A stretch of 64,000 nt of DNA, from positions 8,990,001 to 9,054,000 of the forward strand of contig OX597819.1 in the NCBI GenBank assembly GCA_951406725.2, written 5' to 3'. The stretch comes from Octopus vulgaris (Eukaryota). Below the pieces are notes generated by a model. The model saw only the letters and a list, made by a program, of their open reading frames with translations. It did not search any database and was not told the origin of the DNA. This document shows, one piece after another, positions 25,032 through 54,750 of the stretch (position 1 is its first letter; each line of letters starts with the position of its first letter). Position numbers and translations under genes: made by a program.

Positions 25032-26210
25032 ATATATATGAAAAAACAAGTCAAAAATAGAAAATGCTAAAATAATTTTATAGTGAACATTTCAGTACCG
25101 GTTTCGGTCATTTTGAGACCTTTTCAACTGTAACGATTAAATAATTAAATTTAGAAAAATTAGAAGAAAAGTTTTTTTAAAGGGATATTTCTATAGTAGT
25201 GTTCAGATTTAAGTGGCATTCTGCCTTTCTCTGACTCCCTGGTTTGCACTTGTGTGTTGGAGGTCGTTGTGAGTTCTTGGTAGGGTAGTAGAGGAAGAAG
25301 GCTGATGAGGAAAGGGGTGGGAGAATCTGGGAGTGCCCTGATGGTCGTATTTTGAATGGTCAGTGGCGGCTGGCAGTCGCAGTTCAATTCAGGAGAATAT
25401 TTCTATTGAAAGGCTTGTTTATAGAATTTGCGTAGGTGTTATACTAAAAAACATTAGTGACAAAGTTAAGGGGTAGAAGGTGGGGAAGTAGAAGAAGAAG
25501 AAGAAGAAGAAGAAGAAGAAGAAGAAGAAGAAGAAGAAGAAGAAGAAGAAGAAGAAGAAGAAGAAGAAGATGACGATGTTGATGATGATGATGATGAAGA
25601 AGAAGAAGAAGAAGAAGGAGAAGGAGAAGATGACGATGATGGTGATGGTGGTGATGATTATGACGACGATGATGATGATAATGATGATGATGAAGAAGAA
25701 AAGGAAGAAGAAGAAAAAAACAGAGAAGGGAGAATATGAATGGGTTAAAGTAGTGAGGTGTTGTATGATTTGAAGTTGGCATGTTATGGATTATAGCTGT
25801 GATTTTAGCTGTGATTAGTAATGGATTCTTTGGAATGTAATATTTGTGTGTGAATATTTCTTTTATTCTAAAGTTGAGGTATATTAATCGTTTGTCGTAG
25901 ACCCGTTAAGAAGTGGCCTGTATTTTGCAATAAAGAGAATGCACTTGTCAATAAGTGAAGGTGGATAGTTCCTGGTGATAAGGGTATCTTTTAGTTCTTG
26001 TAGTCGTGTGTCTCTGGTGTTTGCGTTAGAGACTATAGTGCATATCCTTTTTGCTAGATTGGAGGGGATATTCATCCTGGTGTGTCTGGGGTGGCATGAA
26101 TTGAATGGAAGATATTGCTTAGAGTCTGTAGGCTTATAGTATATGTCTGTTTCTATTATATTATTAGCTTTCTTAATGAGGATATCGAGGAAGGGGAGTT
26201 GTTGCTGGCT
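25032..26210 (-). mobile_element. Penelope-like element, internally deleted (left arm of palindrome plus spacer)
   Basis: Minus strand: QQQLPFLDILIKKANNIIETDIYYKPTDSKQYLPFNSCHPRHTRMNIPSNLAKRICTIVS..L.TRNYP (PLE RT thumb), then FIAKYRPLLN, a 3' UTR and a hammerhead motif. Confidence 0.92.
25093..25130 (-). ncRNA. Type I hammerhead motif, U3:A8 variant
   Basis: Exact reverse complement of 27250-27287. Confidence 0.72.
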
Positions 26211-27337
26211 ATATCCTCATTAAGAAGGCTAATAATATAATAGAAACAGACATATATTATAAGCCTACAGACTCTAAGCAATATCTTCCATTCAATTCAT
26301 GCCACCCCAGACACACCAGGATGAATATCCCCTTCAATCTAGCAAAAAGGATATGCACTATAGTCTCGAACGCAAACACCAGAGACACACGACTACAAGA
26401 ACTAAAAGATACCCTTATCACCAGGAACTATCCACCTTCACTTATTGACAAGTGCATTCTCTTTATTGCAAAATACAGGCCACTTCTTAACGGGTCTACG
26501 ACAAACGATTAATATACCTCAACTTTAGAATAAAAGAAATATTCACACACAAATATTACATTCCAAAGAATCCATTACTAATCACAGCTAAAATCACAGC
26601 TATAATCCATAACATGCCAACTTCAAATCATACAACACCTCACTACTTTAACCCATTCATATTCTCCCTTCTCTGTTTTTCTTCTTCTTCCTTTTCTTCT
26701 TCATCATCATCATTATCATCATCATCGTCGTCATAATCATCACCACCATCACCATCATCGTCATCTTCTCCTTCTCCTTCTTCTTCTTCTTCTTCATCAT
26801 CATCATCATCAACATCGTCATCTTCTTCTTCTTCTTCTTCTTCTTCTTCTTCTTCTTCTTCTTCTTCTTCTTCTTCTTCTTCTTCTTCTTCTACCCCCAC
26901 CTTCTACCCCTTAACTTTGTCACTAATGTCTTTTAGTATAACACCTACGCAAATTCTATAAACAAGCCTTTCAATAGAAATATTCTCCTGAATTGAACTG
27001 CGACTGCCAGCCGCCACTGACCATTCAAAATACGACCATCAGGGCACTCCCAGATTCTCCCACCCCCTTTCCTCATCAGCCTTCTTCCTCTACTACCCTA
27101 CCAAGAACTCACAACGACCTCCAACACACAAGTGCAAACCAGGAGTCAGAGAAAGGCAGAATGCCACTTAAATCTGAACACTACTATAGAAATATCCCTT
27201 TAAAAAAACTTTTCTTCTAATTTTTCTAAATTTAATTATTTAATCGTTACAGTTGAAAAGGTCTCAAAATGACCGAAACCGGTACTGAAATGTTCACTAT
27301 AAAATTATTTTAGCATTTTCTATTTTTGACTTGTTTT

Positions 27338-27847: not shown

Positions 27848-28061
27848 GACGCAAACACGCACATGCGCATGCATAGATACATGCATACATATACATTCAT
27901 ACATGTACATATACATACGCAGGTGTACACAGCCATACACATACACACACGCGCACACGCACACACATATATATAAGTATATATGTATGTATATATGTAT
28001 ATATATGCAGGGTATACATACACACGCACACATACACACACACACACACATGATATGTGTG
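27848..28061 (+). repeat. Local ~210 bp duplication, copy 1 (empty site)
   Basis: Matches 29581-29714 plus 29929-30012. Confidence 0.85.
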
Positions 28062-29040: not shown

Positions 29041-29714
29041 TCTGTGAATGTATATTTAAGTGTGAATATATCTTCAAATATTGAGTAAACTTCATTCTAT
29101 TACACCGTGAAGCAAAGCTGAAGTTGCTATGTTTTTTGGGGGTTTTTTCTAAGTACTAAGAGTGACTGAGTGATGACGAGAAATTTCAGGCAAGTGAAAT
29201 AACTGCGTCTGTCATATAGTATGGCGTCTGTGTAATAACAGGAGATAAAATATCTCTATTCAACAAAGAACGGTGGCATAGAGGCATAAATGATATACTT
29301 GATGATGTACGACTAAATTGAAGCTTAATTCAGTGAAATAGAAACGACAAAGAAGCTTGTTTCATGTTCAGAGTAAGCATATTTTGGAATTCTCTTCGCA
29401 TCATTAAACTACTGGAGCTGGTCTTCGTTTCAAACGTATTTAATGGCCGTGCTAGTGTGAGAGCTAATCGATTTCTTCAAGGCATCATACTCCACCCAGG
29501 GATATATTCTAACATTTTATCAATGCTATTGAAATATTAGGGGTAAATTTATATCGGTTCGGCCGACAGATACCAGAGCAGACGCAAACACGCACATGCG
29601 CATGCATAGATACATGCATACATATACATTCATACATGTACATATACATACGCAGGTGTACACATCCATACACATACACACACACGCACACGCACACACA
29701 TATATATAAGTATA

Positions 29715-44200: not shown

Positions 44201-44536
44201 AAGGGCTAGTTCGACGAGTCGTGTTCTGTTCTCACCTTCGAAACACGCTGGAGTTGAACTAGGGACAGCTGATGAAGGGGAATTTTCCTTGTGTAGTTTG
44301 TCTTGTACTCTGTTTTTTCGTTGTTAAAAAAGGTCCTTTTCCATGTTTGTTTTTACGTTGTCTATTTGTGGTGTCCTGTACTCACGTATATATATTTATA
44401 TATGCATGTATATATACATGTAAATGTAGTTACGTACATATATGTATGTATGCATATATTTTATTTATTACACTATTGTATGACTGAGCGCCCTCGCGTC
44501 GATTCGATTCGTTTCGTTTCATCTCCTCCAAGTAAG

Positions 44537-44540
<4 letters not shown>
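44201..44540 (+). mobile_element. PLE-type tail carrying the permuted hammerhead (copy B)
   Basis: Colinear with ~52490-52864, including the downstream T-rich and TA-rich parts; ends in (TA)n. Confidence 0.7.
44206..44280 (+). ncRNA. Candidate non-circularly permuted hammerhead ribozyme (copy B)
   Basis: cgtgU-U(17)-ctgttct...cttc-GAAA-cacg...gggacag-CUGAUGA-a-gggg, plus outer helix ctagttcgac/gttgaactag. Confidence 0.7.
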
Positions 44541-44584
<44 letters not shown>

Positions 44585-50569: not shown

Positions 50570-51731
50570 CTTCTATCTATCTTTCGAAAGATTCTTAGCT
50601 CGAAACGTCAAGAATGCTTCCATTTTTTTTTTTACTGATCATTCATTTAGCGCTTAACTAATAATTACACTTTCTTTTCACTTCATTTCGTGCCTTGATA
50701 TTTTCGCCATAAATTTTCAACATACATGTACATACATACATCCATACTTACCTACCTACCTACCTACCTGCCTACCTACCTACCTGCCTGCCTGCCTACC
50801 TACCTACCTACCTACCTACCTACCTACCTACCTACCTACCTGCCTACCTGCCTACCTACCTACATACATACATACATACATACATACATACATACATACA
50901 TACATACATACACAAAGCGACCACGTGGATACAAAATAAGGCGGGGAAAATTAGCATAGTATTGTTCTTAATACACGCAACTGTTTGATGATCGGTTACC
51001 TGAAGCTTGAATAACTGTTTATGCAGTTTCTCAATTTCAATAAATCATTTTGTGTGAGTACGTCTGTGTGTTTTATGTGTGTGCATGTGTGTGTGTGTGT
51101 ATACACGAGTATTTCACCTTATATTGAAAGTGTTTCAGACAATCACCTAACGTGACGAGCATCTCACATCTTCTTGGTTGTCCTATTTCATCATGAGTAT
51201 AGGGTTCTACCGTAGGTTTTACAATGATTTATCATCTACTCTAAATAAGGATCACAACATCTGAATCTCTCGTAATTTTCAGTTCGTTTTGCAGATCCAA
51301 CAGAAAATATTTGATGATTCGAAAAATCGTAAATTTCATGCTCTTTCGCGCGTCACATTTTGGGCTCATTATGCCTTTTTTCAGCCCTCCTCGACTTTTC
51401 TTCCTTTCATCAGTATCTACATCCTTTCCATCGTCTTGCGCGATGTGCTGACACTAGTAATTGTGGTCTCCAGTGGGCTTTGTGCAACGAGAAGTTGGGA
51501 AAATTTCTTGATTTTTGGTGCTCTATCTCTAGGTCGACTCCTGTACATTATCAACCAAGGAATACCGAATCCTCCGTGCAGAGGGAGTTTGTAGCATTTA
51601 GACGTTATGAGCAGTGGAACGCTTTCAGTTAGAAGTTTAAAGAGCTGACACTCCAATCTAGTCAAACGAAAACTGGTTCACGCACGATAGTTAGCTGATG
51701 ATAGATAATGAAGACGACCTATGTGTCCCCT

Positions 51732-52507
51732 GACTTCGTTGAAACAGTCCTTCCCGCTAAGCAAATTAAATGAAATTTGGAATTTTTTGTGGAGGAGTAA
51801 AAATGGAGACAAGAGCAGGACAGTAAAAACAAAACAGTAAAAGTGATACAAATGAAAACAGTAAAAGACAGGACAAGGATAATAACACAGTGAAAACAAA
51901 CGATGAGGGCTTTTAAACCGAGACGATGGAAAAATTATTTTGAACGCATTGAGAAGACAGCTTAAGAGGACAGGAGAAGCCGTTGTGGACTTGTTGAAGG
52001 CAGTAGTCAGAAAGAAAGTTAGTTACCCTCTGGTCAGCGATGAGAGGGAGGAGGAGGAGGAAAAGACAGGGAACGGTGAAAGGGAGAGGAGAAGAATAGG
52101 GATGGGTGGGAGAAAAACCAGAAAGGATGAAAAATAAGAGAGGGAGAGAGACAGGCAGGGTGGAAGACAGACAGGCAAGGAGGAACCGTTCCCTCTCTCT
52201 TACTCCTCCTCCACCCTCTCGTCGCTAACCGGAGGAAAAATAACTTTCTTTCTGACTACTGCCTTCAACAAGTCCACAACGGCTTCTCCTGTCCACTTAA
52301 GCCGTTTTCTCAATGCGTTCAAAATAATTTTTCCATCGTTTGTTTTCACTGTGTTATTATCCTTGTCCTGTCTTTTACTGTCTTCATTTGTATCGCTTTT
52401 ACTGTTTTGTTTTTACTGTCCTGTTCTTGTCACCATTTTTACCCCTGCGCAAAAAATCACAAATCTTATTTGATTTGCTTAGCGGGAAGGATTGTTTCAA
52501 CGAAGTC
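51732..52507. repeat. Diverged inverted repeat (arms 51732-52077 and 52185-52507)
   Basis: Arms are reverse complements with scattered mismatches; the similar ORFs 51678-51899(-) and 52340-52540(+) reflect this. Confidence 0.88.
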
Positions 52508-52567
52508 GTGTCTTGCTCTTACCTTCGAAACACGGAGTAGTCGAAGCAGGGGCAGCTGAAGAAGGGG
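52493..52567 (+). ncRNA. Candidate non-circularly permuted hammerhead ribozyme (copy A)
   Basis: cgtgU-C(17)-ttgctct...cttc-GAAA-cacg...ggggcag-CUGAAGA-a-gggg, plus outer helix tgtttcaac/gtcgaagca. Confidence 0.7.
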
Positions 52568-52706
52568 AATGTTCCTTGTGTTGTATGTCTTGTACTCTGT
52601 TTTTTCGTTGTTTGAAAAAGTCCGTTTCCATGATTTTGTTTTTATGTTTTCGTTTCTCGTTGTGTTCTAGGTTTTTTTGTTTTTGGTGTCCTGTAACCAT
52701 ATATGC

Positions 52707-52753
<47 letters not shown>

Positions 52754-54750
52754 TAGATAGATAGATGTAGGTATGTACATATATGTATGTATGTATGCAT
52801 ATGTTTTATTTATTAATTTGTTATTATATAATCGAACGCCACGCATCCACTTCCAAGTAGGTTATATATATACTTTTTTATATATATGTATGTATATGTA
52901 TATGCATATATATGTATGTATGTATATACTATCTATCTATCTATTCTCTTTGTAACTTTCTCCCTACCTCAGCATGTCTTCCTCTGCCGCGACCTCACCC
53001 TCATTCGTCGAATTCCTTGTTTGCCTCTTCCTGGTGTCATCTATAACCAGTAGAGTTCATCCTTAACTTACCTGGGCTCTGCTAGCAACGTATCCCTTCC
53101 TTTTCTCTTTCCGTCTTTCTCTCCTTCTCTCACTTTTCTTCCGTCTGTCTGTCTCTCTCACTCTCTCTCTGTCTCACTCTCTCTCTCTGTTTCTCTCTCT
53201 CTCTATTTCTCTCTCTCTCTCCCCTCTCTCTCTCTCTCTCTACCTACCTACCTACCTACCTATTTTCCTTGTACCTTTTCTCAGCATATCTTCCTCATCC
53301 GCTACCCAACCTTCATTCCTTGAGTTCCCTCGTTATCTTTTCCTAGCTTCATCTACAACCAGTTCTTACCCTTATTCTTTCAATATCTGCCCCTCTCTAC
53401 TCTCTGTACCTCTCCCCTACCTCAGCAGCCCTCCTTCTCTGCTACCCGACCCTCATTTTCTACTTCACTCATTGCCTCTTCCTCTAGTTTTCTATAGTCT
53501 CAGCCATCCCTAATTGATTAAAGACCTGCTTAACGATACGCTCTATCAGCAACTCCTCCTTTTACAATACTGTCCAATCTCACCTCTCCCCTTCCCCCTC
53601 CAACTCAGCACTTCTATTTCTACTCAATCCCCCGATTACTCACCTCCTCCTCACTTTACCTGCCTTGTATTTCTTATCTCTTCTTGCCTTTCCTCAACTT
53701 CTCCACTCCCCTTCCCTAAACCGCCTGCATTCTCTCTCTCCCTACCGCTTACTTCTCTCTTCCTCTTCTCCCACTCAACCTTTAAATCTCTTGCACCACG
53801 ATGTGAAACAGGTTATCTGTCAATTTTCCCTCCTGGCGAAGGAAGCCAGTATATCCATCTACTGGTTGCATATCTATGACTCTTTGCACATTCCATCAGC
53901 TAATTATGAACATTACAACTATTACGTAATTCCGAGCTCTCAGAAAGAGCAGTCAAGTTAGAAAATCTATCCATTCGCCCTCTAGTTTTCTGTATTTTTC
54001 ATATCCCATGTAAAAGTAAATTTATTTATCAATACATATAATTTCCGTAAGCTTGTACACATGTTTATCTTCTGAATATATCTAGTTTTTGCATCTACAT
54101 TGTTGACATCCTTTTGTCTCGAGAGACAATGGAGTTGCGCATAAACTAATCCAGTCTGGTTTTTACATTTCATGTCCTCTCCAGTTTTGTGCAGGCCTGG
54201 GCTAGATGTAAGAAAATCCTGGGTAACCCAATCGTTAGGATTCCTCTCTCGACCTTGCTGACGTAGTCCAAAGGAGTGCAGAGCATTACGTTTGGCACCA
54301 GCTTGGTTGCAGGAGCTGCCGGAAGAGTGTCGAATCGAACACTGAACCGCCTACGGGGCTCCATCCGGATTTCTTTGAAGGTTGTCTCTTTTCCGTAGCC
54401 CTGGATAGAGGCCTATACCGGGTTCTGTCAGCTGGAGCCAGCTGAGCCCGGGACTCGTGTCAGACAGGGTCGTCATTCCCTGAAGTAGTGAAGAAAATCG
54501 CTGCCCACTACATATATCCATATATATATGTGTGTGTGTGTGTGTGTAATATATGTATATTTATACATACCAAGCCTAATCATGTTTATCTGTATCACTA
54601 TCTCCATATCAGCTCATCTGGATTTCCCTTATAGCTACTCATTACACCGTGGGTCTGGTCCTTGATAAAGGCTTCGGAGTTTAAGTTTAAATCATTTGAG
54701 TACTACAATATGTTTTCTACATTGAGTATCTCTAGATCTGACCTGTTGAT

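Follow-up and report, generated by a model that had tools for sequence, protein, structure and literature searches.

A covarying hammerhead-like motif with a putatively split core in non-coding, probably Naiad-like Penelope elements of Octopus vulgaris

The locus and its repeat family

The window, i.e. the complete stretch of 64,000 nucleotides of Octopus vulgaris contig OX597819.1 analysed here, contains two matches to an S-G-C hammerhead descriptor, with H17 at 52512 (copy A) and 44225 (copy B). The features of both copies are given in Table 1. Copy A keeps all five helices discussed below, with two mismatches in hairpin y, and its stem I differs from that of most relatives by one C-to-U change. 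Copy B lacks strand z, hairpin y and G10.1, and thus both extra helices. Both copies are probably decaying insertions, selection having acted on their source lineages.

Table 1. Components of the hammerhead-like motif and of its carriers in the window
Feature	Position	Strand	Remarks
Inverted arm, same subfamily as the direct arm	51732..52184	-	86% identity with the direct arm; stops 5 nt short of the predicted cut
Direct arm of the non-coding element, 5'-truncated	52185..52863	+	Family 3' end approx. 350 nt past the cut, followed by (TA)n
Strand z (CCCCU)	52442..52446	+	Pairs with strand i after the core (putative closing helix)
Hairpin y	52447..52485	+	Between strands z and a; the two mismatches are private to copy A
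Strand a (GAAGG)	52486..52490	+	Putative 10.x strand of stem II, G52486 = G10.1; covariation
Outer helix, 5' strand	52493..52501	+	Probably corresponds to the I-II interaction helix in types SGC/CSG
Internal-loop strand GAAGU	52502..52506	+	Faces GAGUA 52535-39; basis: sequence
Stem III, 5' strand, and H17 (C52512)	52507..52512	+	Predicted cut after 52512; covariation
Stem I strand 3' of the predicted cut	52513..52519	+	Covariation
Block G: strand e (CCUUC), GAAA (52527-30), stem III 3' strand (52530-34)	52522..52534	+	
Outer helix, 3' strand	52540..52548	+	Descriptor match, covariation
Stem I strand and core CUGAAGA (C3 52556, A9 52562)	52549..52562	+	Sequence, descriptor match
Strand i (AGGGG)	52563..52567	+	Partner of z in the favoured model; stem II strand in the sequence-only reading
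Copy B, 5'-truncated at approx. -25	44201..44541	+	H17 44225, GAAA 44240-43, CUGAUGA 44269-75

A sequence-only reading of this DNA had recognised in copy A a GUC site with H17 = C52512, stem III (CGUGU/ACACG, 52507-11/52530-34), stem I (UUGCUCU/GGGGCAG, 52513-19/52549-55), CUGAAGA at 52556-62 and an outer helix (52493-501/52540-48) with eight of nine pairs; all of these are present as described, and GAAA lies at 52527-30. Copies A and B also differ as reported, stem I pair 4 being C-G versus U-A and pair 1 U-G versus C-G, with changes at N7 and H17. These differences had been taken as covariation and are real, but they separate subfamilies rather than two selected copies. The order of the parts, named "ZYX" in that reading, holds as well; it is, however, already the published type-SGC permutation (PMC10085705).

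No hammerhead match is found with Rfam, neither in the window at the gathering score nor in 52300-52700 at E<=10. Nested folding of the span given by the sequence-only reading yields no signal (z 0.37; further values 0.03 and -0.47), and the whole motif of copy A is not significant at z -0.54 (other longer spans -2.06, -0.88 and -0.97). Nested minimum free energies were rejected as evidence; the method cannot model crossing stems. Single helices are recovered in nested folds of other copies, namely z-i and y (L062), a-e and y (L095), and y, outer helix and stem III (L041). The internal loop 52502-52506/52535-52539, between stem III and the outer helix, is what we take by eye to be loop-E-like; presumably the same form (GAA/AGUA) occurs in subfamilies A, C, E, F and G, a tandem-GA form in subfamily B and a k-turn-like form in the Naiad subfamily (loci L091-L120 and the window).

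The window contains several further features. Upstream UUUUCGCAG was considered as a splice acceptor and rejected: these bases form hairpin y's 3' strand, which reads CGG in several subfamilies. Left of the inverted arm, GAAA and CUGAUGA occur at similar spacing (51667-51705) in the absence of a stem I partner, probably by chance. A 470-nt inverted repeat with arms 99% complementary and 25 nt apart occupies 25716-26680, and a direct repeat, 99% identical, lies at 27848-27981 and 29581-29714, 1,733 nt apart.

The genome (2.8 Gb, 227 contigs) contains 9,966 matches to the pattern TCGAAA-N23-27-CTGANGAWGG, versus 17 in the reversed control; the pattern fixes the CUGANGA and GAAA core, which is therefore not independent evidence across the copies so collected. 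A scan for all six permutations in 251,515 nt of fetched DNA, mostly loci picked for their likeness to the motif, returned 53 SGC matches, and none of any type in three shuffles. Of the first 100 matches listed among the 9,966, 93 were sampled, and two that proved to be canonical type I hammerheads of a different element were set aside. By eye, the remaining 91 copies make up about ten subfamilies, which differ in their stems.

The carriers are non-coding units of approx. 800 nt, 5'-truncated and ending approx. 350 nt past the cut in (TA)n, with the order S-G-C instead of a type I hammerhead, and they elicit no Rfam match. Partial tandems are spaced 790-816 nt apart (L032, L040/41, L051), and inverted pairs occur elsewhere. 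Among the units listed, none of the family contains a long RT-like ORF. The (TA)n insertion bias, 5' truncation, partial tandems and inverted copies are all seen in the window family. The retroelement context that the sequence-only reading had proposed is supported. Copies of different subfamilies frequently lie within 1.5 kb of each other (L035, L037, L038, L040, L054, L061, L161), which fits a shared (TA)n target. At L032:640-720 and L207, inverted pieces of the downstream part of the element abut the direct copy close to or exactly at the predicted cut. That many loci have an inverted arm with its end at the cut proved to be an artefact of the query used. The pattern is also matched by hammerheads in canonical type I order that belong to a different repeat family, probably a standard Penelope-like element (PLE; L154:1441-1575, L239:441-575), and a type I-order candidate with stems of 7, 10 and 8 bp is present at L038:2245-2390.

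Covariation of the stems and the partner of stem II

Alignment A2 comprises copies A and B and 54 of the 91 sampled copies (56 rows). The other 37 were dropped: 27 are truncated within -16..+14, five have deletions, two are duplicates and three are of the Naiad type. On A2, the model of the sequence-only reading has 87.5% of its cells paired, versus 75.3% in shuffles, a control that ignores relatedness, and 38-51% in slid controls; cells count sequences, not events. Two-sided change is found in 17 of its 24 pairs across the 56 copies. The proposal of the sequence-only reading, purifying selection on the fold within a mobile family, is upheld by the same figures, but for the active lineages, not for the two copies in the window.

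Stem III is 93.2% paired with two-sided change in four of five pairs, stem I 91.6% with five of six, and the outer helix 79.2% with seven of nine, the register of the outer helix being off by one in subfamily C. The compensating changes are seen repeatedly from subfamily to subfamily, each time with other letters. U16.1-A15.1 is retained in 54 of 56 rows, and no row has G at H17 (56/56), neither being fixed by the search pattern. The hammerhead core, H17, U16.1-A15.1 and covarying stems I and III are thus all present, and covariation shows that stems I and III form as the sequence-only reading drew them.

Stem II is a different matter. The sequence-only reading implied a pairing of CUUC with the GGGG directly after the core. 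In A2, this helix has 92.4% of its cells paired, with two of its four pairs fixed by the search pattern; a single pair changes on both sides (C-G 28, G-U 13), and two positions are U-G in 56/56 and 40/56 rows, respectively. An alternative register of CCUUC with G8-A9-AGG is 89.6% paired, lacks any two-sided change, is no better than shuffles and was rejected.

The strand before GAAA (strand e) possesses a Watson-Crick partner approx. 25 nt upstream of the cut, strand a. The pairs are GAAGG-CCUUC in most subfamilies, GAGCA-UGCUC in C, GAACG-CGUUC in L175 and GACACC-GGUGUC in the Naiad type. The a-e helix is 93.6% paired in A2, mostly Watson-Crick, with two-sided change in three of five pairs (slid controls 43-63%), and 95.2% paired in alignment A3, which comprises the 50 rows left after removal of six truncated upstream. 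G10.1-C11.1, formed via the upstream strand, is G-C in 48/56 rows of A2 and 46/50 of A3, the C being fixed by the pattern. Hairpin y lies directly 5' of strand a, and its outer four pairs are 92.3% paired with two-sided change in three of four (slid controls 17-46%). Strand z, directly 5' of hairpin y, pairs with the bases after CUGANGA (strand i); four pairs are 93.2% paired in A3, a fifth is C-G in 25 and A-U in 12 of 50 rows, and the outermost three pairs are 54% paired. Two-sided change in z-i is confined to the outer pairs; the search pattern itself fixes GG in strand i.

The stem II of the sequence-only reading, rich in wobble pairs and out-competed by the upstream partner at 52486-90, is therefore probably wrong, the upstream partner being better supported. 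The span had likewise been set too short: the structure starts near 52442 instead of 52493, and the construct proposed for cleavage assays (52488-52575) would cut off part of the five-helix fold. Since strand e pairs upstream and strand i with z, with hairpin y between them, the ring of core strands seems to be opened between A9 and G10.1. Its strand order appears to be that of types SGC and CSG, with the opening at A9/G10.1 clamped by the closing helix and the hairpin. The junction would be four-way, and the outer helix would stand in for the published helix connecting stems I and II. As in type SGC, the blocks follow the order S, G, C, and stems I and II are presumably linked at their distal ends by a helix, here the outer one; an intact block C with its stem II strand directly after CUGANGA is absent from this fold, although the classic pairing is still possible in this genome. 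From the aligned sequences, we consider it fairly likely that the split-core fold is the active one.

Naiad Penelope-like elements

Naiads are described as PLEs that lack a canonical hammerhead ribozyme (HHR) and insert in (TA)n, and eight of them are marked "HHR_half_core" (PMC8557442). The 3' ends (last 300-600 nt) of 31 of the 54 consensi in File S5 of Craig 2021 were inspected by eye, with names assigned from the table order. Non-circular hammerheads of the split, CSG or SGC layout can be drawn by eye in 14 of the 31. The split layout is seen in six, Obim, Ovul, Plae, 2_Movir, Bfor (with a short stem I) and Esco (with an imperfect stem II); CSG with all stems and the joining helix occurs in another six, Parc, 2_Nbra, 3_Nbra, Hcon, Hpol and Smim; Naiad_Lpol and Naiad-Ppla show SGC with a long insert and an intact block. 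In the inspected part of the other 17 no such motif is resolvable, 1_Dst being a possible SGC. Six of the seven inspected half-core cases are explained by the non-circular hammerheads in their 3' ends.

The contiguous z-y-a layout recurs by eye with unrelated sequence in Naiad_Plae, Naiad-2_Movir and Naiad_Bfor. The strongest case against the stem II of the sequence-only reading comes from Plae, 2_Movir and Esco, where by eye no pairing is possible between the post-core strand and the one before GAAA.

A sister of the window motif lies in the 3' UTR of Naiad_Obim and Naiad_Ovul, and the ribozyme layout is common to the window family and the Naiad subfamily. The Ovul-type motif has 273 sites in this genome, versus none in the control. 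The Naiad remnants of the genome closely match the published Octopus consensi by eye; the copies are old and broken. Of 30 loci that match an RT-like C-terminal peptide from L094, 15 have the sister motif on the same strand and downstream of the match, the 15 including the locus of the query itself and four matches with two mismatches. This peptide has no Pfam match and is tied to Naiad_Ovul via the flanking UTR only; four short motifs of it were not found in the visible parts of the Craig 2021 supplement.

In the listed units of the window family, no ORF with N-terminal GIY-YIG, CxC and RT was found, and no coding partner of subfamilies A-C was detected in 30+20 GIY-YIG loci and 30+10 RT loci. 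The genome contains a young PLE with an open frame of 781 aa (RT and C-terminal GIY-YIG) in many near-identical copies, including L247 and L252. It was rejected as a partner: the motif occurs in one of 30 loci and one of 20 longer stretches, both times on the opposite strand.

With a slightly better than even chance, the split core is common to Naiads of molluscs, a cnidarian, a ctenophore and an acanthocephalan, the Naiads of nematodes, spider, horseshoe crab and crab representing the CSG and SGC openings of the same ring, and would be a natural active hammerhead that is split at A9/G10.1 and rebuilt by a four-way junction.

5' junctions, alternative explanations and known hammerheads

The stretch of 18 nt between -4 and +14 of the predicted cut holds the 5' ends, placed by eye, of 25 of the 91 copies, and the 41 nt between -45 and -5 those of seven, i.e. 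1.4 versus 0.17 ends per nt (by hand); 59 copies reach upstream past -45. Genome-wide, subfamily B junctions with (TA)4 occur at +2..+10 in 35 distinct loci, at -26..-12 in five and at -4..+1 in none; a further 23 loci at +24..+38 derive from a slightly wider pattern, to which sister subfamilies respond as well. Copies whose end coincides with the cut beside (TA)4 were searched for across the genome, with four matches versus two in the control, i.e. no enrichment. Junctions are frequent downstream of the cut too, hence the signal is a drop upstream and not a spike. Truncated ends are frequent 3' of the site and become abruptly rarer at it, which is what a template pool beginning in part at this point would produce. 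TA microhomology shapes the positions of the junctions, and stalling in structure contributes. Reverse transcription of an anole PLE is initiated internally, and the HHR of this element, which is protein-assisted, is dispensable for insertion in vitro, so that the cut need not be required for insertion (PMC11167929).

We consider it highly likely that the family works like a hammerhead. The explanation that we regard as likely is a hammerhead-core motif in a high-copy, non-coding, Naiad-like Penelope element, which would cleave itself after 52512 with its ring opened at A9/G10.1. Stem II would consist of the strand before GAAA and the upstream strand, as their covariation suggests, and the strand after CUGANGA would close the molecule with a strand further upstream, with hairpin y in between, such that a four-way junction may replace the A9-G10.1 link. 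The outer helix would bridge stems I and II at their distal ends via linkers of 0-3 nt and turn back to stem III at the internal loop. Predicted cleavage would determine where the unit RNA begins at its 5' end. This RNA would be reverse-transcribed from approx. 350 nt downstream into (TA)n targets by a Naiad-type protein, the presumed mobiliser of the subfamilies in the window; where the template is cleaved, cDNA would stop at the cut or immediately before it, and it would run through uncleaved or circular templates, which may give rise to the partial tandems.

Three other explanations bear on the same evidence. The motif may be a classic type SGC, in which CUUC and the GGGG that follows CUGANGA directly make up stem II, while the upstream helices are incidental. 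The 4-bp helix is paired in 92.4% of cells with one two-sided change (C-G 28, G-U 13), its 3-nt linker between stems I and II agrees with the SGC of Eckert (PMC10085705), and, by eye, Naiad_Lpol and Naiad-Ppla have SGC forms with the block intact. Its pairs are, however, mostly wobble with two fixed by the search pattern, they amount to 2 bp at most in the Naiad_Ovul type and to none in Plae, 2_Movir and Esco (by eye), and the covariation of a-e and hairpin y is left unexplained, all of which makes this reading improbable. The last three Naiads also bear on a two-state switch, in which a-e and z-i would form a conserved OFF fold that hides both stem II strands, and the SGC pairing would be the ON fold reached after refolding, protein binding or dimerisation. 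Both pairings are possible in most subfamilies of this genome, one PLE hammerhead needed protein for cleavage (PMC11167929), and the majority of copies keep uncleaved upstream sequence (59/91 past -45). Yet the classic ON fold is impossible in Plae, 2_Movir and Esco (by eye), and the identity of G10.1-C11.1 is held in a-e (46/50 rows, the C fixed by the pattern); a switch thus appears unlikely.

The fold may, thirdly, be kept as a signal for protein binding or template switching that no longer cleaves, with the 5' junctions arising from RT stalling in structure. This would agree with junctions being frequent throughout the structured part and with the dispensability of the HHR for insertion in vitro in another PLE (PMC11167929). 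It would leave without a reason the retention of U16.1-A15.1 (54/56) and the absence of G at H17 (56/56), neither fixed by the search, and the junctions stop at +2, past the point where all helices would already have been unwound; we regard such a loss of cleavage as doubtful.

Among known systems, type SGC is validated in vitro and found in metatranscriptomes, and two CSG sequences come from metagenomes; genomes of known organisms contain, according to the available text of that report, no non-circular permuted hammerhead except one GCS candidate (PMC10085705). The present motif shares with SGC/CSG (HRIMA-1; Eckert 2023) the order S-G-C, crossing stems I-III and the same strand ring at another opening, as well as the 3-nt link between stems I and II and a helix joining their far ends. 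It differs in that the 10.x strand is detached from CUGANGA, with the extra helices z-i and y at that step, and in its setting in an animal genome and a retroelement host. The scheme of Eckert assumes CUGANGA and its neighbouring stem strands to be inseparable (PMC10085705).

Like Naiad PLEs, the window family shows (TA)n targets, 5' truncation and partial tandem and inverted copies; unlike them, it is non-coding, with a unit of approx. 790-815 nt and no linked ORF (PMC8557442). Non-LTR retrozymes are likewise non-coding tandem hammerhead units, argued to derive from the pLTR of PLEs, but only type I models serve to define and find them, with no mollusc and no permuted form mentioned in the available text (bioRxiv 10.64898/2026.07.22.740005). 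In the PK hammerhead (Zhan 2024), helix II is also contributed by a remote strand (pseudoknot) and the core keeps hammerhead chemistry, but its connectivity is Pistol-like, with the standard block order and lacking the z-y-a junction (PMC11300833). In the open-access literature, including the available parts of PMC10162972 and PMC13725137, no earlier report of non-circular hammerheads in Naiads or of a split at A9/G10.1 was found.

The motif is real, strongly covarying and hammerhead-like and, to judge from its sequence, a non-circular hammerhead variant in a new host setting. Non-circular hammerheads thereby shift from anonymous metatranscriptome contigs to animal genomes, with deep natural covariation. 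Naiads may have seemed devoid of HHRs because descriptors presumed the canonical strand order. The core connectivity proposed here is the one assumed impossible in the published scheme, and three openings of one ring suggest how permutations may interconvert in tandem or circular retroelement RNAs. If true, the split core would add one more opening to the mirror-order (SGC/CSG) ring, one that falls outside the scheme of six types, and non-circular hammerheads would be the normal ribozyme of the Naiad clade, with approx. 10,000 copies in one genome.
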